Below are positions 18,320 through 33,266 of a stretch of 64,000 nt of DNA, piece after piece. Numbering within the stretch: position 1 is the first letter of the stretch; the number at the start of each line of letters is the position of its first letter. The notes under the pieces are model-generated. The model saw only the letters and a program-made list of their open reading frames with translations. It was not told the origin of the DNA and searched no databases. This stretch comes from Methanotrichaceae archaeon. GTDB lineage: Archaea; Halobacteriota; Methanosarcinia; Methanotrichales; Methanotrichaceae. Position numbers and translations under genes: made by a program. The DNA lies in assembly GCA_963754945.1 (NCBI GenBank), contig CAVWIG010000021.1, forward strand, positions 1 through 64,000. The letters run 5' to 3'.

Positions 18320-18402
18320 GCGGGGGTTGCCAAGTGGTTAAAGGCGCAGGGCTTAGGACCCTGTCACGAAGGTGTTCGCGGGTTCGACTCCCGTCCCCCG
18401 CA
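18320..18402 (+). tRNA. tRNA-Leu(TAG), integration target
   Basis: Acceptor GCGGGGG/CCCCCGC-A; anticodon arm caggg-CTTAGGA-ccctg; long variable arm. Confidence 0.95.
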
Positions 18403-18403
18403 T
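18347..18403 (+). repeat. attL (57-bp direct repeat, 3' part of tRNA-Leu)
   Basis: Identical to 33210-33266. Confidence 0.95.
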
Positions 18404-18792
18404 AAAACCTCATTACTGATAGCGATTTTTTGTGATTGACTGCCATATTTGATTAAGGGCCCATTGATATAAAGGTTATCGGATCATTTACAAGGTATAA
18501 GAGGCCAAACCTCTATGAAATCCTTCCCGGGTCTTCGACGGGTGTTCCATAGTATTACAGAATAGGGAGAAACCGTTAAACGAATTGGCCCTGCGCCTGA
18601 TAACGGTTTAAAAGTGAAACCGATATCAAGAGACTTAACCAAAAGTGCAACCAAAACTCTATACGCTACTATTGAAGAGAAAAAAAATATAACAATGTAC
18701 TTTTGCAGCATAGCGTTTTTAAGACGATGCTGTCGCGAACGCATTGATGTACACTTTTGTACGTGGTTTGCCAGAGCGGTAAAAGGTTTAGG

Positions 18793-18862
18793 CAAAATGA
18801 CCCTTATATTAGTGAGGAGAAAAGGTCAAGTCAAAATGACCCTTATATTAGTGAGGAGAAAA
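18793..18862 (+). repeat. Two identical 31-bp repeats at a 39-bp period
   Basis: caaaatgacccttatattagtgaggagaaaa at 18793-18823 and 18832-18862. Confidence 0.9.
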
Positions 18863-19218
18863 TATCGGAGGCGATGACACCGGTCGACACGGCGACAGTC
18901 TCCAAAAAGTCCAGTCGGGTTTGTCGCGACTTGGTACATTCCTCTCGCAAATTGACGAGTTAAAGTCTTTGTCGCACGCCATCCTATCACTTTTAATCAC
19001 CTCCGACACCAGCCGGGGTTTCGACCATCGCAGGGTTTCTCGCAGTTTCCCTTAGTCAGCTGAAACGCCCGGAAACACCTCCCAAACCTCCACAATCACC
19101 TCCCTGAGAGGCTATTACAGCCTCCATCAACTCCACGAATCGACTTTTGGAAACACTACCATGAGAATTATTTTTATCGTAAAATGAAATTGTTAAGTAA
19201 TTAAACAGGGGTGAAAAC

Positions 19219-19494
19219 ATGACCGAGAAGTTAAAAATGAGTAAGAGCATCTCTTTAACCGCGGATAAGATAGCAGAGATCGAAGCACTTGCCGCGGAAC
19301 AAAATACATCGTTCTCTGGGGTTATTGAGAATGCTATTAATGCAAAGATAAGTAAAACCCAAGAAAGGCCAGCATTAGGGACCAATCTTGGAAGACAGCC
19401 TAATTATTGGGCCTCTGAATCAGTAAGGATATTAGAAGAGATATTGAAGCAATTGGACACACTAAACGAGAAATTAGAGAAAACGGAGGAATAA
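19219..19494 (+). CDS. Ribbon-helix-helix (CopG-like) DNA-binding protein
   Basis: KSISLT beta-strand followed by IEALAAEQNTSFSGVIENAI; GGTGA RBS. Confidence 0.65.
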   Translation: MTEKLKMSKSISLTADKIAEIEALAAEQNTSFSGVIENAINAKISKTQERPALGTNLGRQPNYWASESVRILEEILKQLDTLNEKLEKTEE

Positions 19495-19496
19495 AT

Positions 19497-19943
19497 ATGG
19501 TGAAAGCCTATCGAGTTATCGAACCAATTGAATGCGAGCAACACCCAATCATGATGAACAGCAAGAATCAAATTGTAGAGGCCACAGGAGGAGATATTAT
19601 GATGAACAGAAAGAAGAGTTGTGGAAAGAAAATTGAAGATAGCGACGTAATTGTTAAAGATGATAGTTCGATGTTTGACGATGAGAACTTACAAGAGGAT
19701 GATGAGGATGTACAAGAGGATGACGAAGGTTCTAACATATCGTCCCCTATGACGAACGATTCTCCCCCCTGCGAGGACGAAGAAAACCCCTCGGCAACCT
19801 GTCCCTATGATGCAGATGAGATGAATTGCAGAACCTGTAAAACCTTATCACAATCACAACGTGATGCGATGGAGAACATCAAAGAAATAAGGGACGAACC
19901 GAGCCTCGATGACGTAAGGGCAAAAATGGGAAACCGCCGGTGA
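19497..19943 (+). CDS. Hypothetical acidic protein with a C-terminal Cys cluster
   Basis: RBS and operon spacing; D/E-rich middle; CPY...CRTC. Confidence 0.6.
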   Translation: MVKAYRVIEPIECEQHPIMMNSKNQIVEATGGDIMMNRKKSCGKKIEDSDVIVKDDSSMFDDENLQEDDEDVQEDDEGSNISSPMTNDSPPCEDEENPSATCPYDADEMNCRTCKTLSQSQRDAMENIKEIRDEPSLDDVRAKMGNRR

Positions 19944-20242
19944 ATGCCATGGGAGCAATTGACGAAGGCTTCGAGATCCTCTTAAACTGCTGCGATCAAC
20001 TCCGGCAAATTAGCAGCAAAAGACACGTTACAATGGAAATAAGCAGGATCGTCAGTGAATGCCAGGCGGAACTCGAAGGTCTCGCACACAAAGAGAAAAA
20101 AGAAGAACAGGACCGAGAGGCCGCTTTAACGAGTGCCGAGAAGCATATCGAGCAACCCCAAAAGAATAGTAGCAAACCAAAAATATATAAAATGAATGAT
20201 AAAAAGAGGAAGGAATCAGTAGCAATTAAGAGGAGACGATAA
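19940..20242 (+). CDS. Hypothetical protein
   Basis: GTGA overlap with the previous gene; charged helical sequence. Confidence 0.55.
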   Translation: MNAMGAIDEGFEILLNCCDQLRQISSKRHVTMEISRIVSECQAELEGLAHKEKKEEQDREAALTSAEKHIEQPQKNSSKPKIYKMNDKKRKESVAIKRRR

Positions 20243-20245
20243 AAT

Positions 20246-20887
20246 ATGGTTGATATTATTGAATTCTATAATAACCATCCAAATAGAGGCTCAGATGGCA
20301 TCATGAAGGCAGTCCGGACCCTAAAGGTTATGGAAGAGAACCTCGATAAAATGAGAGCACAAAGCAGGGAATTCCTCATTTTGAGAGTTCGTGAGGGGGT
20401 GTTTTCCGCGGAAGTTGCTCCGGACAAACAGCAAGAGGCAAAGGAGCTTCTAACCCGGATTGACGGTACCGAGGAACGAATTAGAATCCTTCGAGAGGCA
20501 CTTTTAAGAATTGGCAACATGATTGAACAGGTCGGAATCCAAGAACCTCTTTTGGAGTCTGTCCAGGCCTCGTACATGGGCATGGTAAGGACGATAGGGG
20601 CCGTGGAGAAAAAGCACAGCTCCCTACTAAGTATCGCAGTTTCAAATCCTAAGAGTAGAGTCTACGAACAAAGGATGATTGAAGTCAACAGACTCGAAGA
20701 GGTCTTAGACGACTATCATGAAAAGTATGACGAGAGGATTGAAACACTGAAAACCCTCGAAAAAGCCCTCATATCAGCCCTCGGAGAGATTGTTGAAGAG
20801 CCGGTCCAGATGACATCACACGTAGAGGTAGAATCTCATCGCGGTTTGGAAGGGCCTATTCACCTGTGTGGCGGGATTAGGAGTTAA
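20246..20887 (+). CDS. Hypothetical coiled-coil protein
   Basis: 213-aa helical E/R/L-rich ORF with a GAGG RBS. Confidence 0.65.
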   Translation: MVDIIEFYNNHPNRGSDGIMKAVRTLKVMEENLDKMRAQSREFLILRVREGVFSAEVAPDKQQEAKELLTRIDGTEERIRILREALLRIGNMIEQVGIQEPLLESVQASYMGMVRTIGAVEKKHSSLLSIAVSNPKSRVYEQRMIEVNRLEEVLDDYHEKYDERIETLKTLEKALISALGEIVEEPVQMTSHVEVESHRGLEGPIHLCGGIRS

Positions 20888-21111
20888 ATCATACAATCAT
20901 AAACTTTCTTAACAATTTAACAATTTGAAGGAAATTTAAGGATTGCACGAAAGCAATTAAGAGGCGGGAGTTCCCAGCCTTTTTACCATTTTGGGGAACA
21001 CGACCCCTCTCGAAGCACTCGAAGCAGTTGATCTTGTCTTTTTGAGGATAAGTTTAAGGACGACGTACGATATAACAATAACGACACAACCAATAGCAGC
21101 GGAGGCATAAT

Positions 21112-21420
21112 ATGATTGGATATATTAAATTTTGGAACGAACATAAAAATTGGGGGTACATAGCCGCGGAAAATGGCAAAGATTACTTTGCAGGCGGGCC
21201 AAACCTAAGGAACAAAAACTACCACCCTCAAAAAAACGATAGCGTCACCTTCGAACTTGGTGAAAACCAAAAAGGAGTGTGCGCAAAATTGGTTGGACCG
21301 GCGGAAAACCCAATTGATGAAATAGCGGACTTCAATAAAGCATACGGCCGAACCTCCGGGTACACCAACGAGGAAGAGTCCGAGGAAACAATCGCAACAG
21401 CCCTTGGAGGTCATGCATGA
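21112..21420 (+). CDS. Cold-shock-domain protein
   Basis: GYIKFWNEHKNWGYI (RNP1-like), GKDYF (RNP2-like), VTFELGENQKGVCA. Confidence 0.8.
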   Translation: MIGYIKFWNEHKNWGYIAAENGKDYFAGGPNLRNKNYHPQKNDSVTFELGENQKGVCAKLVGPAENPIDEIADFNKAYGRTSGYTNEEESEETIATALGGHA

Positions 21421-21872
21421 CTACCCCTCTCGAAGCACTCGAAGCACTCGAAGCAGTCGAAGCAGTCGAAAAACCAGGAAAGGAGCCTTGGCAAATTTTT
21501 GATGAAGCAACCATCAAAAAGGTTTGGTTCCCGTATGATGCAGGTTATATTGCAGTCGGGATACTAAGAGAACCATTAGATCATAGAAGTCCCTGTGTTA
21601 ATACGGTGTGGGTTTTGGTTGATGATTTTTTTGCCGAGAACTACGAAGGCGGTGTTCATGAACCTGCTTACAGCACTATTATGACTGAGCGGGAGGCCAA
21701 AAGTATGTTTAAGGGACTATCAGAGATATTGGAGGTTCATAAAGAGTACTACGAACCACTATCCGAGGAGGATGAACACCAACATGATTCTGCTCCGAGG
21801 AAGCGAATTTGGCGAGACCTCGACGAAATGTTGAAAGAGGCAACCGAAAAGGGTGTTGCGAGGCAATCGTAG
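21417..21872 (+). CDS. Hypothetical protein with N-terminal (L/V)EA tandem repeats
   Basis: ATGA overlap and GGAGG RBS; 9-bp tcgaagca(c/g) repeats. Confidence 0.6.
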   Translation: MTTPLEALEALEAVEAVEKPGKEPWQIFDEATIKKVWFPYDAGYIAVGILREPLDHRSPCVNTVWVLVDDFFAENYEGGVHEPAYSTIMTEREAKSMFKGLSEILEVHKEYYEPLSEEDEHQHDSAPRKRIWRDLDEMLKEATEKGVARQS

Positions 21873-22110
21873 CATACTTAAGAGGAAAGAAATTAGCGAC
21901 CGAGAAGAAACCTATTGGTAGCCCAAATGGGACAAACCAATATACCAAAGTGGACAATGAGGAACTACCTCACAGTGAGGTAGTTGCTCAATCTGGGCAA
22001 TTTAAACCAAGTGCATTTGGTGAGGAAATTGGGCATAGAACCTCTGAGAAGCTCGGCAAGGAAACTGGACCTGGAAAAACAAGCACAGCAGACTACATTA
22101 AATATATCGA
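21809..22110 (+). pseudogene. Possible remnant of a ParB-associated HTH protein
   Basis: AYLRGKK...GTNQYT...TSEKLGKETG resembles the pre-HTH segment of mobile-element ParB-like proteins; no convincing start or end. Confidence 0.3.
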
Positions 22111-22223
22111 TCCCTTTGTATATGTACATCAAGATCCCCCCAATATGTCTATTAGATATAGTAGTAGACACTTTGGGGGATTTAGGTGTGCGTATAATTA
22201 TCCAAGGGATAAAAATCACCGAT

Positions 22224-22241
22224 AGGTTTAAATAGTTTGCG
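22224..22241 (+). promoter_or_regulatory. TATA-containing promoter motif upstream of the primase gene (copy 1)
   Basis: aggTTTAAATAgtttgcg, identical to 24027-24044. Confidence 0.7.
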
Positions 22242-22332
22242 AACATAGTGTTGGAAGGGTTGAGTTTTACTTTTCTTTCAATTGACTTTAAGAGGTAGCG
22301 TTGCCTTTCAACGAGTGAAGAACTGAGGACTA

Positions 22333-23157
22333 ATGGAAAACCTTAAGAAACTGACACAATGGGTCGTATGGGCTTATACCGAAGATGGTCGAAAGATCCC
22401 CCGATGCCCGGACAACCCTAGTATGTATCTGCGATGGTCTACTTCCTCCTTTATGACATACGAGGATGCATCAATCGCAGATCTCCGGGTCGAGGCCGAC
22501 GGGATAGGACTGATCATACCTGATGGGTACTATGTGATAGACCTCGATCATATCCGCCCCGGAGATCCAAGAGCAAAATCCCTAATCCAATATTGTAACA
22601 GCTATACGGAATTCTCACCATCAGGGAAGGGCATTCATATAATTGTCCGGGCGGATGTTCCGAGAACTCGGAATCTCACTATGGGTCCAAGGACAAAGTA
22701 CCCTACGAAATCAGGTATGGTTATAGAGCTTAAAAGGCCGGGAACGTTCGTAACCTATACCGGTAAGGCTATTGTGAATAGACCTATCAAAGACTGTACG
22801 GAACTTATCCGGACAACCTATGAGGAAGTTTCAGGGTTAGATGCTGCGCTACGCGCTAATGACGTGCATTGCGTAGAGAAAGACGCTTTGGCAAGCTCGA
22901 CGCTTGCCGGTTCTAATGCGGGTAAGCCGGATCATTATTATAAGATAGCCCTAATTAACGAGTGTGAAGTAGTTAGATCCGCGTCCCAAGGAAGCCGGAG
23001 GAACACCCTGTTCAATGCCGCGCGGCATCTCGGAAGATTCCACGGAAAGCTTAACGAGTCAGCGATCCGGGCGGAATTAACCAAAGCGGCGGGCGGATGG
23101 GGGTTCTCCGGGGATATCGTTGATAGCACAATAAGCAACGGGTTGGCAGCAGCATAA
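22333..23157 (+). CDS. Primase-polymerase (AEP/prim-pol) with helical C-terminal domain
   Basis: QWVVW, IDLDH, YTEFSPSGKGIHI, FVTYTG; C-terminal RNTLFNAARHLG. Confidence 0.85.
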   Translation: MENLKKLTQWVVWAYTEDGRKIPRCPDNPSMYLRWSTSSFMTYEDASIADLRVEADGIGLIIPDGYYVIDLDHIRPGDPRAKSLIQYCNSYTEFSPSGKGIHIIVRADVPRTRNLTMGPRTKYPTKSGMVIELKRPGTFVTYTGKAIVNRPIKDCTELIRTTYEEVSGLDAALRANDVHCVEKDALASSTLAGSNAGKPDHYYKIALINECEVVRSASQGSRRNTLFNAARHLGRFHGKLNESAIRAELTKAAGGWGFSGDIVDSTISNGLAAA

Positions 23158-23207
23158 GCCGAACGAAGCATTAAGGACCAATTAAAGAATGTAGGGGTGA
23201 ATTAATT

Positions 23208-23756
23208 TTGCCAAAAGAAATAAAATTATCACAGGGTAAAGTTGCAATCGTTAATGATGATGTGTTTAATGAGGTGAATAAATATACATGGTATGCTGAT
23301 AAGAAGGGAAAATATAATATTGGATTTTATGCGATGCGACATATTATCATAAATGGAAAAAAGACTACAATTCCGATGCACAGGTTTATTTACTTCTTGA
23401 AAACGGGGAAATATCCGGATGGTGACATAGATCACATCAACCACAACGGGTTAGATAATCGATTTGAGAATTTGCGAATATGCGACCGGTCAGAAAACGG
23501 CGGCAATCAACATATTCATGAGCAACCTGGAAAATCCAGCATCTATAAAGGTGTAAGCTGGTACGCGCAAGATCAAAAATGGGAGGCCTATATTCGCAAA
23601 CATTCTAAAAAAATACATCTTGGATTATTTGATTTAGAAATTGAAGCAGCCAGAGCTTATGATGAAGCTGCTATAGGGTATTTCGGAGAGTTTGCTTATA
23701 CGAATTTCCCACGTACAGATTACGAACATATACGACCAATAGCAGTGGAGGCTTAA
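23208..23756 (+). CDS. HNH endonuclease with AP2 domain
   Basis: [33 protein letters not shown]...[10 protein letters not shown]. Confidence 0.92.
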
Positions 23757-24026
23757 ACCACGAACGAAGTTCGGCAACATCCTTTCTTTCTTCTACGCAA
23801 TGCACTATTAGGTGACTTCCTCCCTCCCCCTCTCTCGTCATAGTACTATTAGATAAAATTTGAGGAATACATGGAGAATGTTTTAAATGATGAAATAGTA
23901 CATAAAAATAGGATATTGGGCCGGTTACCGGGAAGTATGTGTTGTTTTGATCTGAAAAGCCTTGTAACGAATTATGTTTTGCATATTATATTGTTGATGG
24001 GATTATAAGGTGCAGAAGGTTAGAAA

Positions 24027-24044
24027 AGGTTTAAATAGTTTGCG
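24027..24044 (+). promoter_or_regulatory. TATA-containing promoter motif upstream of the helicase unit (copy 2)
   Basis: Identical 18-mer to 22224-22241, preceded by a purine-rich BRE-like tract. Confidence 0.7.
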
Positions 24045-24150
24045 TGCGTATTTAGATGTAAACTGTTTTTGGCAATGACGAGCAACCTCGGAGCCGAAGG
24101 TACGGACTTACGGATATATTATCAACCAATAAAAATAACGGAGTGATTAG

Positions 24151-24360
24151 ATGCAAGAACCAATAAATGAATCATATAGGATGTTTGTCGGAAAAATATG
24201 TATCGGGTATCTTAAAAGCGGTCACAAGTTTGCAGCAAGGCTACTTGAAATTAAAGATGGAACGTTTATATTTGAGAGCAAAGCCGGTCTCAAGTTCATT
24301 GACCTAATCGCGGATGTGACAGAGCTTGCGGTTATGATTCATCCGGGAACGGAGGCTTAG
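24151..24360 (+). CDS. Small hypothetical protein (beta-rich)
   Basis: GGAGTGA RBS; stop 3 bp upstream of the helicase start. Confidence 0.6.
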   Translation: MQEPINESYRMFVGKICIGYLKSGHKFAARLLEIKDGTFIFESKAGLKFIDLIADVTELAVMIHPGTEA

Positions 24361-24363
24361 AAC

Positions 24364-26076
24364 ATGGCTGGGGCTTATTATGTAGGAACAGATGGATGCA
24401 CATATCATTCAAGCGGAAAAAAGGTTATGGATGGCCGGATTCACATTAATCAGATTAGACGGGATTATAAGACCGGCGAGGTAACTTATGTTTTGTCCGG
24501 GGAGGATACAACAGGCCGGAGAGTAATTATAATGGTACCGGCAGAGAGGTTTTTCGACCACCGTCGCTTAAGAGTCGATATCGAATCGAGATTTGATGTT
24601 ACATGTAACACATATTTCGGAAAGGAAGACAAACTATATAATATTATCAAAAGCGTAACCAACTTGGAAACACTCGTTGAATTCTGCGAAGTAGATCAGG
24701 TTTTATGGATTGATGATAAACTTGTCATCCCCGGTTTAGAGCCTAAAGGATACAAGTGCAACCTTGATAAAACATTATTTCCCTACAGCATGCCGGATAG
24801 CTTAGACTTGAATGCGGCTATTAATGCCTTAGACCATATCTTACATGCATGGCCCATTGAAAAGACTATGCCTATTATAACATTGGTTTTCGCCGGGCCG
24901 GTGATTGGGAAACTCTTTCCGGATTATAGATATGGGTTTGCTCTTGTAGGTGAAACAGGCAGCGGGAAGACTCTCTTTGCAAGGTTGGCCTTATCAATAT
25001 ATGGATCCGGGTTTAGATCTACGGAGACTATGATAAAACTTGGAGAGGGATCAACAGGCAATGCAGCAAGGAAAATCTTCGCTCAGGCCGGAATGATGCC
25101 CTGTTTAATGGACAACTACAAGCCATACAAGTCATGGTCTCAGAGTGACCTATCATCGCTTATTCATTCTGTTATGGAAGGCGGGGATAAAGCCCGGTTG
25201 GACAAGGAAAGTGAACTCAGGGACATACAAAAATATTATACATGTCCCATAATAACAGGAGAGGACTTTGCATTAGACCCGGCATCTCAGGCCCGGATTA
25301 TGCCTATGGATTGGCCTAGGTTCAATAGTGACGAGTTAGACAAGGCAACCGAAGATCTTCGGAGGCATTTACCGGCCATAGGCAGGGCATGGTTAACGTG
25401 GTTGCAATCCCCGGAAGGATTGACAGCTATGGATGAGTTTAAAGAACAGTTTCCAAAACATAGACAGGAGATGATAAGCATTATGGAGAGACGAGATGGA
25501 GCCGTAAACCCTGAGAGGTTGGGTTCCAATATGGCATTATCTGATTTGAGCTATGATATGTTATGTAAACATCCGACTATTGGATGGTACTTTAAACAGC
25601 ATAGACCGGAATATGAGCAGAACATAAAAGAGACTTGTAAGCAGGTAGCAACAGCAACAAGGGAAAGCTCGGAGGCTGATGAGTTAGTTGAACTGCTGAG
25701 AAATGCAATATCCCGTGATCGTTCCTCAGGTACAGGATACTACCCGAAATTCAAAGGATTTATAAGGGATGAATTTATATATATTTATCCTGATGAATTG
25801 GTCAAATTTGCAAAGCAGAATTTGGACGGCGCACAGAAGCTATCAAAAGCAACCTTAGCCCGGCAATTAATATCACACAAGTTCATCATTCCTTTTAAAG
25901 ACGGTAATCCAACATGGGTTGTTAGTGATCACGGCAAGAAGGTCAGACTTTACAAGTTCGAGAAAGAGACGCTACTTGAATATGCGCATACAGAAGTAGA
26001 ACCGCAACATGAAACGAGCCCGTTGGGCGATGTTGTAACAGTCGGAGGGGATCAGATAGATTTAGCATACGCATAG
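24364..26076 (+). CDS. Replicative P-loop helicase (DUF927/SF3-like)
   Basis: Walker A GETGSGKT, Walker B-like CLMDN, IITGED, Arg finger QARI; located after the primase and before the iterons. Confidence 0.75.
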   Translation: MAGAYYVGTDGCTYHSSGKKVMDGRIHINQIRRDYKTGEVTYVLSGEDTTGRRVIIMVPAERFFDHRRLRVDIESRFDVTCNTYFGKEDKLYNIIKSVTNLETLVEFCEVDQVLWIDDKLVIPGLEPKGYKCNLDKTLFPYSMPDSLDLNAAINALDHILHAWPIEKTMPIITLVFAGPVIGKLFPDYRYGFALVGETGSGKTLFARLALSIYGSGFRSTETMIKLGEGSTGNAARKIFAQAGMMPCLMDNYKPYKSWSQSDLSSLIHSVMEGGDKARLDKESELRDIQKYYTCPIITGEDFALDPASQARIMPMDWPRFNSDELDKATEDLRRHLPAIGRAWLTWLQSPEGLTAMDEFKEQFPKHRQEMISIMERRDGAVNPERLGSNMALSDLSYDMLCKHPTIGWYFKQHRPEYEQNIKETCKQVATATRESSEADELVELLRNAISRDRSSGTGYYPKFKGFIRDEFIYIYPDELVKFAKQNLDGAQKLSKATLARQLISHKFIIPFKDGNPTWVVSDHGKKVRLYKFEKETLLEYAHTEVEPQHETSPLGDVVTVGGDQIDLAYA

Positions 26077-26282
26077 AATTGTTACTTTTGTTGCCGGGGA
26101 TCGATATGCAGTGACCTACGGTAACAGAGTAACAGAAGAAACGGGGCTTTTTACAGAAAGTAAATCTAAGAGAATAAAAAAGAGTATAAATTACTGTAAC
26201 TACTGTAACTATACTATATAATATGTTAGTAGATAGTGTTCTTACTGTAACAATTAGGGTAACAGTGGTGTAACAAAGTGAC
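26035..26282 (+). other. Putative replication origin (GTAAC iterons around an AT-rich core)
   Basis: GTAAC at 26035, 26121, 26129, 26196, 26205, 26247, 26259 and 26270; inverted copy at 26081; TACTGTAAC three times. Confidence 0.6.
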
Positions 26283-26569
26283 AATTTAATGGAATACGCT
26301 ATCGAGTGACCTTAAACTTAGAGGAGATTGGAGGTTTATTAAAATGTTAGTATCATATATTTACAACACTAAGATTCACAGGATGGAAAAGGTATACATA
26401 TGCGAAAATCCATATGAAACCGCATTGGTAGAAGGCCGTATCCGGGAATCATTCACCGGGCCAACCCGGATTGAGAACAGGTATTGAGAGAAATTGGAAC
26501 AATCCAATAAAACCTTAGAAGGCCGGAATCACCCCATCGGAAGGCTATTGGGGTGATTTCCTAACGGTT

Positions 26570-26995
26570 ATGTATCCTCTGATGGCAACTGAGCTTACCC
26601 CGTTGGAATCATCATCAGGCGTGAAATCAATACCGATGGCATTCACTACAAAAGAATTTATAAATGTGGTTAAATCTGGAAGAACACTTAAGGAGGTGAA
26701 AGATAGCACACAGAAGAAAGAGGAAAAGAGCGAGGAGGACTTCCGGAAGGCTACTATAAGGATTAATCAGATGATAAGCACAACACCGGAGGAGTTAGCT
26801 GATATTTTAAAGGAACATGTATCACCGGAGAAGGCAGCAGGCAGGTTGCTTCTAAAGATGAGGAATAAGAGATTTCCAACGGGGGACGAACCTGGAATGG
26901 ACTATATGGTTTACATGGCAAAAAAGAATACAGGAAACGGTGTAAAAAGATGGAAGATATTAAAGGTGGAGAAAGGCAAGAGGTATATTCCCTAA
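26570..26995 (+). CDS. Hypothetical basic protein (start uncertain)
   Basis: Lys-rich ORF in the orientation of the element. Confidence 0.4.
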   Translation: MYPLMATELTPLESSSGVKSIPMAFTTKEFINVVKSGRTLKEVKDSTQKKEEKSEEDFRKATIRINQMISTTPEELADILKEHVSPEKAAGRLLLKMRNKRFPTGDEPGMDYMVYMAKKNTGNGVKRWKILKVEKGKRYIP

Positions 26996-27013: not shown

Positions 27014-27208
27014 CTACTGTTGGTATCGCTATCGGGAAGGCTCGAAAAAGGGTATGATGGGTTTAATGGGTTTGTTTTACCCGGTTCTATAGAAATTTTC
27101 AAAAATTTGGAAGCCGGGGGGTAAAACTAACCATTAAAACCCATTATACCCTCTTTTAGTGTTTTTTGAGTCCGGCTGATAGCGGTATTTTTTAATCAAT
27201 AACAGTAG
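27014..27208 (+). repeat. ~195-nt imperfect inverted repeat (long hairpin)
   Basis: Nested complementary blocks: ctactgtt/aacagtag, gtatcgctatc/gatagcggtat, agggtatgatgggt/acccattataccct, gttttaccc/gggtaaaac. Confidence 0.85.
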
Positions 27209-27677
27209 ACCTGATTAGGATAACCTTTTTTCCGGAGCATTTTTTTCCTCTCCCCTTGTGTGTTAGACGAATACAGTTATCGCGTCGTGAGTCCTGGGGA
27301 AATTTGGGCCTTTGCCTGATCCCTTTTCCATCTCACTGTAATACTATATCGTCTATTAAAATATATCTATTTTTTATATATCATAGAAATATTAATATGA
27401 AACGGGGTTGGGCGATGTGTGTTGCAGTAAGATTTTTTAGAAAGTAGTAACACGAATCAAGTAAGTTCGCATTATTAACGAAAGCGAACTCCGGTCGCAG
27501 GATATCGGTATTTTTTGGGCCATGGTGTGTTACTCAAAACTCACATCCGGGCTAGTGGCTACTGTTATTGATTAGGCAGATTTATGTGTACAATTGGGCC
27601 ACATAAACCGATCGTTGAAATGCGTTTCTAAGATATAGGTCAAATAATTATAAATATAAAGTTATGGAGGAATTATC

Positions 27678-28232: not shown

Positions 28233-28944
28233 TCCCGCCGCATGGTTGGAAGATGTTACGGGGATAGTACCCGATCTTTGGCAACGGGATTTATTATATT
28301 ATAGAGAAGATACTTTATGTATGACAGGGCGGCAGATGGGGAAAAGTACTATGGTTGCCGCTAAAGCCTGTCACCGTGCCGTGTTCTATCCAAAGTCCTT
28401 AGTACTGATTCTTGCACCATCCCAACGTCAGAGTCAGGAATTGGGATTGAAAGTGTCTGATATCTGTTCTGAAGCCCGCCTTCCGGTTGTTGATGAAAGC
28501 CAACAGAAGACTACATTCACTAACAAGAGCCGGATTATATGTTTACCGGGATCTGAAGCAACAATCCGGGGATATTCCGCGGCAAATCTTCTCATTATTG
28601 ATGAAGCCAGCCGGGTAGAAGACGGATTATACTTATCTGTAAGGCCTTTCTTAGCAGTATCCGGAGGGCAATTGGTAGCGATAACAACCCCGTATATCCG
28701 CTCCGGGTGGTTCTATAATGCCTGGGAGACCTTGGATTCCCATTGGAAGAAGATTAAAGTGACTGCTGATGATAATCCCAGGATTACCAAGGTATTTCTT
28801 GAATCAGAGCGCGAATCAATGCCGAATTCGTGGTTTAGATCGGAATATTTTTGTGAATGGTTGGATTCCGGGGAAGGCTGTTTATTCAATCCGGACGATA
28901 TTAAATCATGTGTGAGCAGTGAAATAGAGGAATTGGAGGTATAA
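28201..28944 (+). CDS. Terminase large subunit, ATPase domain (stand-alone gene)
   Basis: PDLWQ (Q motif), GRQMGKST (Walker A), APSQRQS, IRG, IIDEASRV (Walker B), TTP (motif C), FRSEYFCEW. Confidence 0.88.
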   Translation: MSLKNLQQRLNPAAWLEDVTGIVPDLWQRDLLYYREDTLCMTGRQMGKSTMVAAKACHRAVFYPKSLVLILAPSQRQSQELGLKVSDICSEARLPVVDESQQKTTFTNKSRIICLPGSEATIRGYSAANLLIIDEASRVEDGLYLSVRPFLAVSGGQLVAITTPYIRSGWFYNAWETLDSHWKKIKVTADDNPRITKVFLESERESMPNSWFRSEYFCEWLDSGEGCLFNPDDIKSCVSSEIEELEV

Positions 28945-28945
28945 T

Positions 28946-29833
28946 ATGGTAAAAACTATAGTTTACAGTAGAGCAGAAATCAACGCGATGACAGAAGAAG
29001 AACTACTATCAAAAGGTTTTAAAGATGAGGTAGCCGCCCGGAAGAAAATACAACAGCAAAAATCCAAGCCTCTTAACTGGTTTATGTCATACCGCTACAT
29101 AATCAGTGTAGATATCGGCAAACATAACGATTATACGGCTATATTTGTCATTGAGAGGGAGGGCCGGGATTACCATGTTATAAAGATCGATAGGTGGAGA
29201 CGTCAAGACCACACTTATCTAATCTCAAAGCTGTTAGAACTCCAAAGACACCCCAAAATGAAATCCGGAGAGATAGCCTTCGTCATAGATGCTACGGGTG
29301 TTGGTGATGCAATGTTGGATTTTATTAGGGAGGCGGGGATTCCGGCCATCGGTATCAATATCCACGGAGGATTTGACACAACAATGAGCTCAGGAAGGAT
29401 TTCTGCTTCAAAAAATGATTTAGTTTTCTGTTTACAAAATATCTTTGAACACCACCGCATCAAGGTTGCCGATACTATTAAACTTTGGGCCGAAGTTCAG
29501 AAAGAATTGATGACGTTCTCCCCAAAGGTAAATCAGAACACCGGGCACGTGTCCTATGAGGCTATCCGGAGCAGGGATCACGACGATTTAGTAATGTCTT
29601 TAGCAATGGCCGCATTGTTTTGTGAGAGGGTTGATCCTGCTGTTGTACAGGACTCAGAGGGCGGAACCAACGTATATTCAGGATCGGGAGGAATGACTGA
29701 TATCATCGGGCTTAGTACCCTCTCGATAGATGATATAAACGATATGATGACGAATGATGGGTCCGGGGATTATACTCCGGGAATGGAGAGCTTAGAAGTG
29801 AGCCGCAAAAGGGTTCGAGGTGAAGTCTGGTAG
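28946..29833 (+). CDS. Terminase large subunit, RNase H-like nuclease domain (stand-alone gene)
   Basis: SVDIGKHNDYTA, IDATGVGD and HDDLVMSLAMA motifs; own GGAGGT RBS and ATG. Confidence 0.85.
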   Translation: MVKTIVYSRAEINAMTEEELLSKGFKDEVAARKKIQQQKSKPLNWFMSYRYIISVDIGKHNDYTAIFVIEREGRDYHVIKIDRWRRQDHTYLISKLLELQRHPKMKSGEIAFVIDATGVGDAMLDFIREAGIPAIGINIHGGFDTTMSSGRISASKNDLVFCLQNIFEHHRIKVADTIKLWAEVQKELMTFSPKVNQNTGHVSYEAIRSRDHDDLVMSLAMAALFCERVDPAVVQDSEGGTNVYSGSGGMTDIIGLSTLSIDDINDMMTNDGSGDYTPGMESLEVSRKRVRGEVW

Positions 29834-29877
29834 GTCCACATTTTGTACATTTTTGACCATCAAGCACAAGATATATA

Positions 29878-30866
29878 TGCTGTGTCGATTAAGCTTAAAT
29901 AGTTTAAATATAAATATTATATCATGAACTATGTTGATAATAGAGACTGGCCAGAATATAATGCCCAACTTGTTCGAAGAGGCGAATTCTATCTCGATTT
30001 GAGTTGTGTGAAGAACTGGAGTTGGGAATTAAGAGAAATGAATAGAAAGAAAACAGGCGCTCCATACGAATACCCTAACACTTTTATAACTTTTGCATCA
30101 ATAATATACTCTTTTTTTCGAATGCCATATCGTCAACTTGAAGGATTCTTTGGACGACTTTCGACCTATGAACCAGGATTGGTGGCGGCAGATTATACCA
30201 CCCTCCATAAGCGAATCTCTAAGCAAGATCTTGGAATAGAGATACCAGAGAACGACGCTGTTGTTGCAGTTGATTCAACTGGGATAAAGGTAACAAATAG
30301 AGGGGATTGGATGCGCGAGAAACACGGAAAGCAGCGGCGAGGATGGCTTAAAGTTCATGTGGCAGTCGACGTTGAATCAAAGAGATTATTGTCTATGGAA
30401 ATTACAGAAGAAGACACCTCGGATAGCGAGGTTTTGCGCCCTTTGTTGAAAGACGTCAATATTGAGGAGGGGTTGATGGATGGCGCATATGACACAAACG
30501 ACGCATTTGAATTTATGAAATCGAAAGGTGTAGATTGTCCAGGGATTAAGATCAGAGAGAACGCGATAGTAGGTAAAGATGCATCAGCCAGGTCAACAGC
30601 TGTTCTGGAATTCAAAAAAATGGGCTACAAGGGTTGGAAGCAAATGCATCAGTACGGTAGAAGGTGGGCAGTTGAAGGCTTCTTCTCATCGATCAAGCGT
30701 ATCTTTGGTGAGACGGTTCGGGCATCTTCACCCGAAGGAATGGTCGCCGAGATTAAAAGAGCATTCATTTTGTATAATATACTTAGGAGCATATAAGTAA
30801 TTAGTTAAAATAAATTATGAATTCTTGAATAACGAAATAATACTATAATAATCATGCGACACAGCA
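29878..30866 (+). mobile_element. IS5-family insertion sequence, second intact copy (989 bp)
   Basis: Same TIRs as the first copy; 8-bp TSD GATATATA at 29870-29877 and 30867-30874. Confidence 0.93.
29924..30796 (+). CDS. IS5-family DDE transposase
   Basis: Matches 2628..3500 except for one visible K/E substitution. Confidence 0.93.
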   Translation: MNYVDNRDWPEYNAQLVRRGEFYLDLSCVKNWSWELREMNRKKTGAPYEYPNTFITFASIIYSFFRMPYRQLEGFFGRLSTYEPGLVAADYTTLHKRISKQDLGIEIPENDAVVAVDSTGIKVTNRGDWMREKHGKQRRGWLKVHVAVDVESKRLLSMEITEEDTSDSEVLRPLLKDVNIEEGLMDGAYDTNDAFEFMKSKGVDCPGIKIRENAIVGKDASARSTAVLEFKKMGYKGWKQMHQYGRRWAVEGFFSSIKRIFGETVRASSPEGMVAEIKRAFILYNILRSI

Positions 30867-30928
30867 GATATATATATACACCCGTCGAAACTTTAACCAT
30901 TAATACAGTTAAAAAAGGAGGATATATA

Positions 30929-32077
30929 ATGAAACTGGTTAAAGTACTTATAGCACTCGCTATAGTCTTGATGGGAATTTCGGGTGCTAACGCCGTGCGA
31001 CAAGGTGTTGCTAACGGTGAATTAAAAACAGCCGGTGTTGGTCAAATAGATTATTCATTGACATATGATGCTTCACTAAATACAGTGACAAATCCAACTG
31101 TATTGAATTCACCACTTACCATGAAAGCCCAAATCGGCTCTGGGTATATCCTCGTGGAGCCTACTCCGGGCACTCCGGGAGCAACGATAACTAACGCAAA
31201 TGCTATCAATTCATTTTTGAACGCTCATTCTGCAGGAGGGGATATTGCAGCCGTTGGGCTTGGTGTTTCTGGAGCTAATGGTCAGGATGCATCAGTCAAG
31301 AATTACCAAATGTATGGATATGTCACGCCTAATTATGCATGGGCTGGCCAATATGCAGATAGCATCACGGGTGAGTCTATATCTATGCAAACTTTGACAT
31401 ATAACTATGCAACTCAAAATCTGGTTTTCCACCCAACCACTATCCAACTCGGTCCACTGGCTGTACCCACTCCATACACTTACGCCGATGCCACATCTGG
31501 TATTAAAACTGCCACCCTAAATACACTGAACAATAACCTTAACACGGGCTATACCGCAGCGCAAATCAATGGGGCCAATGCCGGAGGAACTGACAAATCA
31601 ATTGTTACTTTAACAACGGCATACCAATTCGCCCAAGCAGGAGGATCACAGACCCCATATCCAAGTATTGGTGCATTCGGACAGTCAGTAAATGCTGCGG
31701 GATCTATACTTACGGGCGTCAATGGTGGTACGATAAATGAGCTCACTGAAGGCGCGTACGGTCAGGATCCATGGACGGGATCTACCACATATATTGCAAA
31801 AACCGGTACCGCCAGTATCGCCCCCGCCCAGGACAGCATGGGATTTGAAGACAAGACTTTAACCTACGCTAGCGTGGACGACCCTACATCCGCCGGTTCG
31901 CCCTCTGGTAGCTCTTACCATACAAGTTACGTTGCTAACTTCAACGGAGCGGGTTATGAGTCGCCGGGATCATCTTATGCTAGCACCGTTCCTCTTGCGC
32001 CGCACATTTGCAGTGGCTTCCCGTACTCAATTACCACCGGAACGGAGGGAGGGGCAACGGGACAAACTTTCTTCTAG
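30929..32077 (+). CDS. Secreted Gly/Thr/Ala-rich protein (cargo, possible surface protein)
   Basis: GGAGG RBS; signal peptide MKLVKVLIALAIVLMGISGANA; T-rich terminator-like tract after the stop. Confidence 0.75.
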   Translation: MKLVKVLIALAIVLMGISGANAVRQGVANGELKTAGVGQIDYSLTYDASLNTVTNPTVLNSPLTMKAQIGSGYILVEPTPGTPGATITNANAINSFLNAHSAGGDIAAVGLGVSGANGQDASVKNYQMYGYVTPNYAWAGQYADSITGESISMQTLTYNYATQNLVFHPTTIQLGPLAVPTPYTYADATSGIKTATLNTLNNNLNTGYTAAQINGANAGGTDKSIVTLTTAYQFAQAGGSQTPYPSIGAFGQSVNAAGSILTGVNGGTINELTEGAYGQDPWTGSTTYIAKTGTASIAPAQDSMGFEDKTLTYASVDDPTSAGSPSGSSYHTSYVANFNGAGYESPGSSYASTVPLAPHICSGFPYSITTGTEGGATGQTFF

Positions 32078-32225
32078 AAAAATTCTTTTTTTTATTTATT
32101 TAATACATGCGTCAACCTCCAAGCAATTTTCCCGAGCCCGTATAATCGATTTTAAGGCCTGATTTCCAAGGATGTATTCCAGGTGGTAAAAAGAGTTTTA
32201 GGGGCAAATTTGACGACTTGGTGGG

Positions 32226-33089
32226 CTATAACTTCAGAAATTGGTCATATTTTAGCCGCTTGGTATCATCCGATAAATGCAGGTACCTCATACTGGTTTG
32301 GATATCATTGTGCCTTAATACGTGTTGGATGGTCAATAGATCGCAGCCATTTTGCACCATTAAAGAGGCGGGAGTATGCCGGAATAGAACATGTGCTCCG
32401 CCTTTCTTAGTGATCCCTGCTCGATCCTTGTAATAGATCACCAAGTTGTAGATCTCTTTACGATCATATCGGTTCCCAAAGTCTGTGAAAAATAAAGCTT
32501 GTTTGCCTTCTAATTCAAAGTCCGGTCTTAGTGCTAAGTAGTCGCGAAGTGTTTCCGCGGCATCCTCGGAAAGATACACGACAGAGGTTTTGCCGCCTTT
32601 GCCATCGCGAACCTTTAAGGCCAACCTATCAAGTTCAACATCTTCAAGATCAAGGTTACATAGTTCGGAAGCTCTTAAACACCCGTAGAATGCAGTCTTA
32701 AACATCGCGAGGTGTTTAATATTATTAATCTGGTCGAATATCTTGCAAACATCATCAGAGGTGAAGTAATAGGGAATCTCGTTAGTCCGCTTTAAAAATG
32801 GAAATTTCACTTCCTGTCCGAGCATCCTGTGATAGTTCCTGATTGCAAAACAGTAATTATTGATCGAAGATCGGGATAGATTTTTATCCATTAAGGAATC
32901 CCGGTACTCCTGTGCCATCTCCGGGGAAGGTTGATTAGATCCGCAAAACTCAAGGTACTTCTTAATTCGTTGCAGGTAATCATCCAAGGTACTCTGCCTA
33001 ATGCCTTGGTCTCTTAAATACCGCTTAAAACTTCTTAATCTGGTATCCTTGTTCGGAATATCCCATCTTATTGATAACTTCTGCCTCAT
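32226..33089 (-). CDS. int: Tyrosine recombinase/integrase (XerC/D-like)
   Basis: GCLRASEL (R), GKGGK (K), HVLFRH, LRH and TSMRY; N-terminal SAM-like domain; adjacent to attR. Confidence 0.93.
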   Translation of the reverse strand: MRQKLSIRWDIPNKDTRLRSFKRYLRDQGIRQSTLDDYLQRIKKYLEFCGSNQPSPEMAQEYRDSLMDKNLSRSSINNYCFAIRNYHRMLGQEVKFPFLKRTNEIPYYFTSDDVCKIFDQINNIKHLAMFKTAFYGCLRASELCNLDLEDVELDRLALKVRDGKGGKTSVVYLSEDAAETLRDYLALRPDFELEGKQALFFTDFGNRYDRKEIYNLVIYYKDRAGITKKGGAHVLFRHTPASLMVQNGCDLLTIQHVLRHNDIQTSMRYLHLSDDTKRLKYDQFLKL

Positions 33090-33209
33090 TTTAATACCTC
33101 ACGAGGCAGTCATTAGCCGAGCCCTGTTCACTTACAAAACCCGGTATCACACGAAAATCAATATCAGCAGAGGCGTCCAGGGAGATATTTCGGATAGCAG
33201 AGGTTCATT

Positions 33210-33266
33210 CAGGGCTTAGGACCCTGTCACGAAGGTGTTCGCGGGTTCGACTCCCGTCCCCCGCAT
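33210..33266 (+). repeat. attR (duplicated 3' part of tRNA-Leu)
   Basis: 57-bp identity to 18347-18403; the 5' part of the tRNA is absent. Confidence 0.95.

Follow-up and report, generated by a model that had tools for sequence, protein, structure and literature searches.

The low-GC region that occupies a tRNA-Leu(UAG) gene in the 64,000-nucleotide stretch of Methanotrichaceae DNA analysed here (the window) is a complete integrative mobile element, and it belongs, as judged from comparative sequence data, to a large family of capsid-less, terminase-bearing elements found across Bacteria and Archaea instead of being a one-off deletion. The best reading of this element, which we trust slightly more than we doubt it, is a virus satellite equipped with a packaging enzyme of its own, which neither borrows nor re-aims that of its helper. 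We prefer it because the family recurs, viruses with a split terminase co-occur with its members, the terminase ATPase reaches high identity between the two and the small terminase subunit is divergent.

Anatomy of the element

The element spans 14.9 kb (13.9 kb without its IS), with a GC fraction of 0.38-0.47 against 0.50-0.56 in the flanks. Its ends lie in a 60-nt direct repeat (18347-18406 / 33210-33269, 98% identity, spacing 14,863 bp), whose first 57 nt are identical; this exact 57-bp repeat of the tRNA-Leu 3' end and the drop in GC bear out the att-bounded element of ~14.9 kb claimed in the earlier note. The order of genes given there, from a regulator to a convergent integrase, holds: the RHH regulator is followed by the prim-pol, the HNH-AP2 gene and the SF3-type helicase, then by the iterons and the palindrome, the TerS-like gene, separate genes for the TerL ATPase and the TerL nuclease, the host IS, the secreted protein and the integrase (Table 1), the last being convergent with the remaining genes and possessing both the Phage_integrase catalytic and the N-terminal SAM-like domain (Pfam). 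The tandem 39-bp repeats are a candidate operator or arm-type site.

Table 1. Features of the element and its integration site (positions in the window)
Feature	Position	Strand	Evidence or remark
tRNA-Leu(UAG), integration target	18320-18402	+	ARAGORN (tag anticodon)
attL core, 3' part of tRNA-Leu	18347-18403	+	direct repeat
Two tandem 39-bp repeats	18781-18858	+	92% identity; 5' of regulator gene
Ribbon-helix-helix (CopG-type) regulator, 91 aa	19219-19494	+	Pfam RHH_1 8.1e-05, above cut-off
Three coupled ORFs (148, 100, 213 aa)	19497-20887	+	without Pfam or PHROG match
Cold-shock-domain (CSD) protein (102 aa) and coupled 151-aa ORF	21112-21872	+	CSD gene 21112-21420
Prim-pol, archaeo-eukaryotic primase type	22333-23157	+	phrog_13901 1.6e-23; phrog_1829 6.6e-23
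HNH-AP2 homing-endonuclease-type gene	23208-23756	+	HNH_3 3.4e-11; AP2 2.8e-09; phrog_99 1.9e-44
69-aa ORF and 570-aa SF3/D5-type helicase (DUF927-like)	24151-26076	+	helicase gene 24364-26076
Iteron-like cluster, GTAAC-type direct repeats	26117-26285		directly 3' of helicase gene
141-aa ORF	26570-26995	+	without Pfam, PHROG or PADLOC match
Non-coding spacer	27024-27677		38-nt-arm palindrome 27045-27156
TerS-position protein, 184 aa	27678-28232	+	N-terminal CxxC and helix-turn-helix, helical remainder
TerL ATPase half, separate gene, 247 aa	28201-28944	+	Terminase_6N 1.7e-14, above cut-off
TerL RNase-H-like nuclease half, separate gene, 295 aa	28946-29833	+	Terminase_6C 3.6e-11
Host IS (29878-30866) with DDE_Tnp_1 transposase (29924-30796)	29870-30874 including TSD	+	Pfam and genome copies
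Cargo: secreted all-beta protein, 382 aa	30929-32077	+	signal peptide behind RBS
Tyrosine recombinase (integrase), 287 aa	32226-33089	-	Phage_integrase 3.1e-27; Phage_int_SAM_1 1.3e-08; phrog_1 1.9e-34
attR core, 57-nt copy of tRNA-Leu 3' part	33210-33266	+	direct repeat

The prim-pol is collinear with residues 242-308, and the helicase (phrog_1139 4.2e-13; DUF927 8.2e-4, below cut-off) aligns with residues 330-791, of one and the same 1074-aa protein of a relative (L088). By these alignments the prim-pol is the N-terminal part of a split primase-helicase with the HNH-AP2 gene between the halves, an arrangement in which this element departs from its capsid-less, terminase-bearing relatives. 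The iteron-like cluster is likely the replication origin, and the spacer 5' of the TerS-like gene, which also holds a perfect 16-nt inverted pair (27193-27208 / 27559-27574), is a candidate packaging-recognition region. Among the smaller genes, the CSD protein matches Pfam CSD at 6.3e-06, just below cut-off, and PADLOC CSD_V at 1.6e-08; for the three coupled ORFs an Atlas search gave no lead, and the 213-aa product is modelled as all-helical with long helices (AlphaFold, pLDDT 51.8, low confidence).

The protein at the TerS position belongs to a cluster of 63 proteins located 5' of TerL in elements and viruses, and its profile matches the equivalent gene of Methanotrichaceae viruses with 95.5% probability; searches of Pfam, PHROG and PDB returned no match. 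Its position, the CxxC motif with the HTH-like region, the helical remainder and its conservation 5' of TerL would fit a TerS, which is a small, oligomerising DNA-binding protein encoded beside TerL whose task is to recognise the packaging site. The ATPase covers all 239 positions of phrog_7579 (5e-52), and its Walker A residues G47-K48-S49-T50 as well as D134-E135 are invariant across 15 aligned sequences, in keeping with an ASCE ATPase that has Walker A and Walker B motifs. The nuclease has all the conserved acidic residues of its domain: an alignment of 14 sequences shows no variation at D56, D62 and D115 and hardly any at D213 and D214. As predicted proteins, both TerL halves have intact catalytic motifs, and the three terminase ORFs are open.

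Virion genes were sought in several ways. HMMs for portal, MCP, MuF and scaffold proteins built from related viruses matched none of the 18 element ORFs, Pfam and PHROG gave no portal, capsid, protease or tail match among them, the ~14 kb contain no tail or lysis genes, and no structural pseudogene fragments were seen, the other ORFs all being short. The largest ORFs apart from the named genes encode 382 aa (all-beta, secreted) and 213 aa (helical), and neither model has an HK97 capsid or portal fold, that of the 213-aa protein being of low confidence. The absence of a recognisable portal, capsid, protease or tail gene, stated in the earlier note, holds against Pfam, PHROGs, related-virus HMMs and models alike, and the possibility it raised, that some ORF without assigned function is a capsid or portal protein, turned up none recognisable by profiles or models; the label is profile-based, and very divergent archaeal proteins could escape it. 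Classification as a tailed (Caudoviricetes) provirus, which calls for an HK97-fold major capsid protein and a portal, finds no basis in these profiles and models.

The IS lies between two copies of the 8-bp TSD GATATATA (29870-29877 and 30867-30874), so that it kept its TSD on both sides, as had been claimed. The genome contains 12 other full-length copies (protein identity at least 97.6%), and at least six other copies have perfect 8-bp TSDs; the insertion into the element took place recently. The cargo gene had been given a start at 30854, which falls within the IS end and is here corrected to 30929 on account of the RBS and signal peptide. Its product has 32 homologues among 1.84 billion representatives and was not found in the 100 other Methanotrichaceae genomes searched; the model (signal helix and beta strands, pLDDT 65.6, pTM 0.71) resembles no PDB or BFVD fold at E<=0.001.

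Relatives and co-occurring viruses

Stand-alone TerL-ATPase proteins of this type number 1,678 (~250 aa), and of the 469 genome loci with such an ATPase the best 80, nine of them archaeal, were kept. The recurrent order is INT, primase/helicase, TerS, TerL-N, TerL-C. In 12 of the 33 loci with both integrase and TerL, att repeats of 31-65 bp at tRNA genes enclose 8.3-12.2 kb; these 12 elements are bacterial, and their gene set is limited to an integrase, a primase-helicase, TerS and the split TerL. Their 95 further ORFs fall into 44 families, and the 25 of these that were listed include none of portal, capsid or tail type. The element described here shares with them the att repeats, the integrase, the primase/helicase, the TerS-like gene, the split TerL and the absence of portal and capsid. 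Whether the closest homologues are full proviruses and this copy a one-off deletion, as the earlier note had asked, can be answered: mostly they are not, structural genes being matched in one of the 80 genome loci (best 80 of 469; a portal), against 44 of 80 IMG/VR loci. Episomal, circular-looking forms occur as well: four IMG/VR contigs without structural matches have terminal repeats (11.7, 12.5, 6.6 and 15.2 kb). A second terminase module, 39% identical and without structural genes, lies on another contig (C8) of the same genome. Two observations count against a satellite. In the ATPase tree, loci that have structural genes are mixed with loci that lack them. Morphogenesis leftovers occur in three relatives, a prohead protease in L201 and tape-measure-type domains in L036 and L214, which fits a decay series from proviruses. 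A literature search found nothing on such a family beyond the single "enigmatic" NitKor-E1, and it is apparently undescribed so far.

Within the Methanotrichaceae, the ATPase profile matches 35 of 100 other genomes, 23 of which have the ATPase and lack the portal type of the family's viruses. Twenty regions were fetched, among them 14 small elements and five tailed proviruses; in the latter, portal and capsid genes come after a TerL split in the same way. One complete genome (G044) contains an element and a split-TerL provirus together (L198 and L199). The terminase is all that elements and viruses have in common. Between them the ATPase is 75-86% identical and TerS always 18-27%, despite which element-type and virus-type TerS are, from sequence comparison, homologous. 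The ATPase is conserved above TerS and nuclease also within element-element and virus-virus pairs, and what is specific is solely that TerS identity stays consistently low when elements are compared with viruses, a result based on two virus contigs.

The earlier note had suggested looking for a helper provirus, excision junctions and CRISPR spacers. The host family does include viruses with the same split TerL as potential helpers, but no helper was found in this assembly (88% complete): Phage_portal and Phage_capsid as well as the portal profile had no match, and a tblastn search in which the family's viruses supplied the portal and capsid queries hit TerL genes only. An attP junction was looked for and not found for this copy, and none of the 42 spacers compared matches the element; nor does any member of the family bear a direct mark of mobilisation or encapsidation. 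The helper lineage cannot be named, because the ATPase sits on a long branch without close relative (at most 49% identity to any row of the tree, 53% to the best database match).

Satellite, plasmid, relic or virus

If the element is a satellite, its integrase would move it into and out of the tRNA-Leu 3' end (att sites, tRNA and domain are seen, activity is presumed), and prim-pol and SF3 helicase would replicate it from the iteron cluster 3' of the helicase gene. The trigger would be the multiplication, in the same cell, of a tailed virus whose portal is compatible. The TerS-like protein would then recognise a site on the element DNA, probably in the palindrome-rich spacer 5' of its own gene, the nuclease subunit would cut, the ATPase subunit would dock on the helper procapsid and pump the DNA in, and the element would exit in virions made by the helper, on which we infer its packaging to depend. 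With an IS insertion and a replication gene split by an endonuclease gene, the present copy may be old or inactive. More tentatively, and with rather more doubt than trust, we propose a hitherto unrecognised, cross-domain class of satellites with a complete three-gene terminase only, in which the split TerL would combine a helper-like, portal-docking ATPase with a nuclease that, as TerS, has diverged to recognise and cut satellite DNA only.

A self-sufficient replicon with an integrase could also be an integrative plasmid that uses the terminase for concatemer processing, for vesicle loading or as a portal-competing defence against viruses. Such a portal-blocking decoy would equally need an ATPase close to that of co-occurring viruses, and interference with helper packaging by satellites and prophages is described in published accounts (10.1101/2025.02.27.640495, PMC11417361). 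It would, however, need neither a conserved nuclease nor a TerS carrying a DNA-binding domain of its own, and a terminase had, according to the account of NitKor-E1, not been identified in a non-viral element (PMC6563490); interference and spread as a satellite are, moreover, compatible, and known satellites as described do both. We regard the plasmid as rather unlikely. A shade less probable still is a tailed provirus at tRNA-Leu from which the genes for head, tail and lysis have disappeared, with the terminase a functionless leftover. The only comparable archaeal element was published as 'likely is a relic' (PMC6563490), some relatives keep single morphogenesis genes, this copy contains the IS and the split replication gene, and its assembly yielded no helper. 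Against decay stand the same reduced gene set in att-bounded units of many phyla, two terminase modules in this genome at 39% identity, three open terminase ORFs with kept catalytic residues, circular-looking assemblies of such elements and a replication module of plasmid type, typical of small elements; nor are there structural pseudogene fragments among the short remaining ORFs, and the IS kept its TSD. Highly improbable, finally, is an autonomous small virus with capsid proteins too divergent to recognise. For about half of the ORFs no function can be assigned, but packaging by a terminase needs a portal (typically at least 400 aa in related viruses) and a major capsid protein, the sole unassigned ORF above 213 aa encodes the all-beta protein with signal peptide and no viral fold match, and ~14 kb in total hold no tail or lysis gene.

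The satellite of a tailed methanogen virus proposed in the earlier note survives these comparisons in so far as the homologues are mostly not full proviruses and no ORF is recognisable as capsid or portal; helper, junction and spacer are missing for this copy.

Known systems and significance

Like PICIs and SaPIs, the element is an att-bounded unit of ~14 kb with integrase, regulator and a primase/helicase next to the origin; it also has a small-terminase-type gene and cargo, lacks genes for virion and lysis and, here presumably, depends on helper capsids. Classical PICIs use the TerL of the helper, and PICIs other than cf-PICIs lack TerL; an alpA or Stl-type master repressor regulates them, and their pri-rep genes are of a PICI kind. 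The element, in contrast, encodes a complete large terminase as two genes and resides in an archaeal host, and its Pfam and PHROG matches include no alpA/Stl-type module, PICI-type pri-rep or capsid-size-redirection gene. What remains of the term 'PICI-like' in the earlier note is the analogy of layout; the regulator is RHH, the replicase prim-pol with a DUF927-like helicase. The label applies by analogy only, because none of the genes has demonstrated homologues among those of PICIs and non-cf PICIs lack TerL. An integrase-bearing, att-bounded island without structural or lysis genes, the element falls within the PICI size range, given as roughly 7-20 kb (PMC13376191). The cf-PICIs have their own TerS and TerL and package independently of the helper terminase, but, as described, encode capsid, portal and protease, none of which was found in the element, and take only tails (10.1101/2022.09.08.507074).

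The nearest archaeal counterpart, likened here by its description, is NitKor-E1 of Ca. Nitrosopumilus koreensis AR1, presented by Krupovic et al. in 2019 as an enigmatic single case and probable relic (PMC6563490): it is likewise integrated, with a tyrosine integrase and with TerS and TerL as its sole Caudoviricetes-like genes, whereas that account, as far as it goes, reports no family, split TerL or co-occurrence with viruses. The earlier note knew of no such architecture in methanogens, with which our literature search agrees, but the thaumarchaeal NitKor-E1 had been published in 2019 (PMC6563490). pSSVx/pSSVi, the haloarchaeal SRCEs and the Asgard NMV2S are also archaeal plasmid-type replicons thought to travel in helper virions; the former two groups rely on spindle-shaped viruses and encode an AAA+ ATPase and/or an MCP, and NMV2S is a circle on the 4-kb scale for which regulator, helicase-primase and Cas4-like nuclease are listed and no terminase (10.1101/2025.02.15.638363, 10.64898/2026.08.12.739948). 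The layout of integrase, primase, TerS and split TerL appears in none of them as described. Among tailed viruses, the TerL of Meiothermus phages MMP7/MMP17 and Thermus phage Riverbug is 43-44% identical to the element ATPase and that of Methanotrichaceae proviruses ~41%, all with the same TerS-position gene 5' of TerL; these viruses, however, have 33-34 kb or more, TerL being immediately followed by genes for portal, MuF, protease, capsid and tail, and in the isolated phages MMP7, MMP17 and Riverbug TerL is one fused protein of ~415 aa in place of two genes.

The terminase complex has been taken for a hallmark that tailed viruses share with herpesviruses, not identified in non-viral elements (PMC6563490); an intact terminase is now present in hundreds of small elements regarded as non-viral. 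If these are satellites, they would represent a third packaging strategy beside the borrowed or re-aimed helper terminase and the self-built capsid, and virus-prediction pipelines would be mistaking them for viral fragments; of the 80 IMG/VR loci examined, at least 36 are without structural match. The split terminase is a natural system in which to ask on which TerL domain portal compatibility depends and on which DNA specificity. The archaeal satellites described are those of spindle-shaped viruses and one putative Asgard case (10.1101/2025.02.15.638363, 10.64898/2026.08.12.739948); with satellites of the present kind, helper-satellite biology would extend to the tailed viruses of methanogens. 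On the more tentative reading of a cross-domain class, no earlier satellites of tailed archaeal viruses would be known from methanogens. Present in roughly a third of the sampled species of Methanotrichaceae, hosts that are globally important methane producers, such elements would then constitute a major route, overlooked so far, by which genes are transferred and viruses interfered with.

Anatomy of the integrated element

The earlier note had described an att-bounded element, its order of genes and an insertion sequence (IS) keeping an 8-bp target-site duplication, a picture borne out by ARAGORN, the repeats and Pfam and PHROGs, and accurate save for the start of the cargo gene (30929). The 3' part of a tRNA-Leu gene is duplicated at the far end, the att copies forming a direct repeat of 60 nt (98% identity, first 57 nt identical) whose copies lie 14,863 bp apart. 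GC content is 0.38-0.47 inside the att copies versus 0.50-0.56 outside, and every long ORF save one is on the plus strand. A cluster of GTAAC-type repeats is present 3' of the helicase gene, as is a large palindrome in the 680-bp spacer upstream of the gene in the small-terminase (TerS) position, while the large terminase (TerL) is split into an ATPase and a nuclease. The IS belongs to the host and went in recently, by a simple insertion that deleted nothing, since the same 8-bp duplication rule is also seen at other copies in the genome, where 12 further full-length copies share at least 97.6% protein identity. Two further low-GC stretches occur in the window, one of them with more copies of this IS.

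Features of the window, of other contigs of the same genome (C) and of related terminase loci (L)
Feature	Coordinates	Details	Basis
tRNA-Leu(tag)	window 18320-18402		ARAGORN
Element	window 18347-33266		
RHH regulator			Pfam, PHROGs
Cold-shock-domain protein			Pfam, PHROGs
Prim-pol			Pfam, PHROGs
HNH-AP2 endonuclease			Pfam, PHROGs
DUF927-like SF3 helicase			Pfam, PHROGs
Terminase_6N ATPase		247 aa	phrog_7579, 5e-52, end-to-end on 239-position profile
Terminase_6C nuclease		295 aa, start 2 bases past ATPase stop	Pfam, PHROGs
IS	window 29878-30866	GATATATA on each flank	
DDE transposase			Pfam, PHROGs
Tyrosine integrase		convergent	Pfam, PHROGs
Duplicated 3' part of tRNA-Leu	window 33210-33266		
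Low-GC stretch	window 1-5000	GC 0.31-0.43	
Further IS copies	window 45-864, 2631-3500		
Low-GC stretch	window 42000-48000	GC 0.38-0.44	
Second terminase module (L003)	C8 290-4022		
Integrase and prim-pol homologues	C31 about 40.9-49.1 kb (L004), C15 12-24.5 kb	integrase 42-44%, prim-pol 29% identity	
Terminase nuclease match	C18 152193-152425	41-56% over 27-56 aa	tblastn
Tape-measure-type ORF	L036 9742-12468	PhageMin_Tail, 3.5e-42	
Tape-measure-type ORF	L214 12472-16677	PhageMin_Tail, 2.3e-38	
Early-ending nuclease	L013 10725-11297		
Long ORFs of ATPase cluster	L040 562-2430, L065 643-2547	622-634 aa	

The replicase gene looks split by the insertion of an endonuclease, because prim-pol (274 aa) and helicase (570 aa) are collinear with two parts of one 1074-aa primase-helicase in the related locus L088 (residues 242-308 and 330-791 respectively), and an HNH-AP2 homing-endonuclease-type gene, together with a 69-aa ORF, lies exactly between them (window 22333-26076).

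Contig C8 of the same genome has a second terminase module, which shares 39% identity with that of the element. Its order is Gins51_C/HTH protein, TerS-like gene, ATPase, nuclease and two small ORFs, and host genes (ADH and luciferase-like) come next; as the contig begins 290 bp ahead of the module, the left part is lost. Compared with elements in other family genomes, the ATPase of this module shows 84-88% identity, and with a virus contig 75-78%. The homologues on C31 and C15 appear to mark other integrated elements, and the short match on C18, to the C-terminal part of the TerL nuclease of a same-genus provirus, may be a terminase remnant.

Search for virion genes in the element and its relatives

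The absence of recognisable virion genes, reported in the earlier note, was upheld. The unnamed ORFs (148, 100, 213, 151, 138, 69, 141 and 382 aa) gave no structural matches in Pfam or PHROGs, and HMMs for portal, capsid, MuF and scaffold proteins built from related viruses matched none of the 18 ORFs of the element. Only the 382-aa ORF, the secreted cargo protein, is as large as a portal or capsid protein. It carries a signal peptide and has 32 homologues in a library of 1.84 billion proteins and none in the 100 other family genomes searched. Its model (21-row alignment) is all-beta, with a pLDDT of 65.6 and a pTM of 0.71, and found nothing at E<=0.001 in a fold search of PDB and BFVD, whereas the 213-aa ORF was modelled with low confidence as long helices (pLDDT 51.8); the ESM Atlas yielded no usable lead for either. 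Profile searches of the TerS-like family against PDB brought up nothing beyond designed helical repeats and weak HTH proteins. PADLOC, run on 10 ORFs, reported CSD_V and a homing-endonuclease model, a weak Cas2 match (E 0.0057) being disregarded. The 370-aa ORF following TerL in the Methanothrix harundinacea element was rejected as a homologue of the 382-aa ORF (E 14); a 'ParB-like' motif can be read in its sequence. From sequence comparison and the predicted folds we conclude that neither a capsid nor a portal protein can be recognised in the element; a small structural protein of very divergent sequence is possible.

Database relatives of the ATPase number 1,678 proteins (135-433 aa, E<=1e-5); the 120 of them listed measure 236-322 aa, with identities of 43-53%. 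When one genome per species was scanned with a profile, 469 loci emerged, of which the best 80 were kept; nine of these 80 have archaeal titles (Methanocrinis, Methanothrix harundinacea, Methanospirillum, Methanolinea, Methanomicrobiales and others) and the remainder belong to many bacterial phyla. Clustering the ORFs of these 80 loci produced only four large clusters, namely nuclease (68), ATPase (65), TerS-position gene (42) and integrase (37), followed by primase/helicase clusters, and no conserved cluster of proteins large enough for portals or capsids. Among the 33 loci holding both integrase and TerL, a direct repeat of 31-65 bp at a tRNA gene encloses 8.3-12.2 kb in 12, each with an integrase, few small ORFs, a large primase/helicase, TerS, ATPase, nuclease and little cargo; the other 21 have shorter repeats or none, contig ends being the limit in several. 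In the 12, the 95 ORFs left over (at least 90 aa) matched 44 Pfam families, and the 25 families listed include no portal, capsid, protease or tail family. Structural HMMs matched one of the 80 genome loci (L062, the only portal-type match), in contrast to 44 of 80 IMG/VR loci (199 IMG/VR loci in all). Four IMG/VR contigs without structural matches have identical ends, as is usual for circular or terminally redundant molecules: L115 (11.7 kb, 123-bp repeat), L092 (12.5 kb, 127 bp), L159 (6.6 kb, 127 bp) and L123 (15.2 kb, 32 bp); no structural family was found among the eight unassigned ORFs of L115. Because capsid-less loci recur, with att-bounded relatives and terminal-repeat contigs among them, this copy is not a one-off deletion of a full provirus, which the earlier note had named as an outcome that would tell against a satellite.

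Some relatives show peculiarities of their own. The nuclease of the att-bounded bacterial element L013 loses its similarity ahead of the conserved HDD motif and stops short, which may mean a damaged copy, and the ORFs of the ATPase cluster in the archaeal MAG loci L040 and L065 exceed both the split (about 250 aa) and the fused (about 415-490 aa) forms. In several archaeal capsid-less elements (L036, L214, L198, L204, L206, L207) an ORF of 800-1,400 aa stands right after the nuclease gene; in L036 and L214 this tape-measure-like protein occurs without capsid or tail-tube genes in the same element.

Related viruses and a possible helper

The nearest isolated phages are Meiothermus MMP7 and MMP17 and Thermus Riverbug, with 43-44% identity to the ATPase of the element; inspection of two of them, MMP17 and Riverbug, showed an undivided TerL of about 415 aa, after which come genes for portal, MuF, protease and capsid. 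Among IMG/VR viruses, Phage_portal and Phage_capsid genes come after a fused TerL, and SPP1-type portal, MuF, scaffold and capsid genes after a split one. Loci with and without structural genes are interleaved in a FastTree phylogeny of 140 ATPase sequences, in which the label 'virus' changes 16 times, below all 500 shuffles, and the sequence of the element forms a long branch that lacks any well-supported neighbour.

Within the Methanotrichaceae, the ATPase profile matches 35 of 100 other genomes, often two or three times per genome, and 9 of 16 genera, the genus of the window counted. Twenty of these places were fetched: in L199, L205, L209 and L210, the last from the same genus as the window, a split TerL precedes portal (SPP1-type) and capsid genes; L211 combines a portal of Mu type with a prohead protease, large ORFs follow TerL in L208, and 14 have no structural match. 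One complete genome contains both the split-TerL provirus L199 and an element, L198. Most of the 14 comprise a 170-aa ORF, an integrase, small ORFs, a primase/helicase of 800-1,100 aa, TerS, ATPase and nuclease; one, L201, spans 15.7 kb, with a 69-bp repeat at tRNA-Gly, and retains a prohead protease, and another is L214, with its tape-measure-type ORF. A portal profile of the family viruses matches 18 of the 100 genomes; portal and ATPase occur together in 12, the ATPase only in 23.

The helper provirus and the matching CRISPR spacers that the earlier note proposed to look for were sought in vain: the genome of the window contains no portal found by these searches, and no spacer of its single array (contig C32, 42 spacers) matches the element, the C8 element or the fetched loci over at least 80% of its length. 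Four contig-type public runs of one study (shares 0.06-0.11, none RNA) cover the element with scattered short identical pieces and no attP or attB joint, which is uninformative on excision or expression, and their high depth is confined to the multicopy IS. Two sister genomes, G003 and G018, have the right-flank gene, with an upstream region that is not syntenic; tRNA-Leu is followed in G003 by about 95 bp resembling the left end of the element, after which the contig diverges and ends, and in G018 by about 24 nt resembling the right flank, the contig ending 84 bp on. These stretches hint at an occupied site in G003 and an empty one in G018 but are too short to count.

In the clade holding the C8 copy, elements and viruses have only the three terminase genes in common, and their TerS types are homologous (hhalign probability 95.5%, E 1.4e-8). 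The identities are those expected if the motor subunit fitted a shared partner, the helper portal, while the DNA-recognition subunit differed; we hold this loosely, because the ATPase is the most conserved in every type of pair, this clade includes only two virus contigs and the three genes are clearly shuffled (C8 versus L215: TerS 73%, ATPase 79%, nuclease 27%).

Global-alignment identities in the clade of the C8 copy, which includes only two virus contigs
Pair	ATPase	Nuclease	TerS-position
Element vs virus	75-86%	25-64%	18-27%
Element vs element	75-89%	26-66%	32-73%
Virus vs virus	81-83%	66-73%	31-65%

A probable satellite and its alternatives

The integration site and its core are documented, the integrase, replicase and terminase genes are intact, recognisable virion genes are absent, the family is large with complete small members, and related viruses exist in the host family. 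We lean towards regarding the element as a virus satellite, which would replicate from its iterons, whose TerS-like protein would recognise a site in the spacer and whose DNA would be packaged into the procapsids of a helper tailed virus. This is the best available reading, neither of the two outcomes named beforehand as contrary to it, a one-off deletion and a capsid or portal among the unnamed ORFs, having been observed; the interpretation of the earlier note is supported in part, a helper for this copy not being identifiable. A role of the terminase other than export, including defence by competition for a portal, seems unlikely to us; like a satellite, a decoy that blocks portals would need an ATPase close to that of the viruses. 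Slightly less credence is given to a relic, with the apparently split replicase gene and the failure to find a helper on one side and the intact genes and the complete small relatives on the other. An autonomous virus that escaped recognition is very improbable; it would depend on structural proteins diverged beyond all the profiles and models applied.

As far as the sources consulted describe them, the element is functionally like PICIs in size, att sites, integrase, a replicon with a putative origin beside it, a gene of small-terminase type and the lack of virion genes, but on gene content it falls outside them and carries TerL; with cf-PICIs it has its own TerS and TerL in common, but it does not have the capsid genes that they carry. 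Among published archaeal cases NitKor-E1 comes nearest; its only virus-like genes, in the portion of the paper available, are TerS, TerL and integrase (PMC6563490). One 2025 preprint of the same school, as available in part, gives pSSVi and pSSVx as the only archaeal satellites known and adds the spindle-virus-associated SRCEs (10.1101/2025.02.15.638363); another, from 2026, proposes one small Asgard satellite, a terminase not being listed in the accessible part (10.64898/2026.08.12.739948). A family combining integrase, primase, TerS and split TerL is not described in the portions of the literature searched, and the supplementary catalogues of archaeal provirus surveys may hold members. If the element is indeed a satellite, it would represent a new composition of modules and a new host domain for satellites of tailed viruses.
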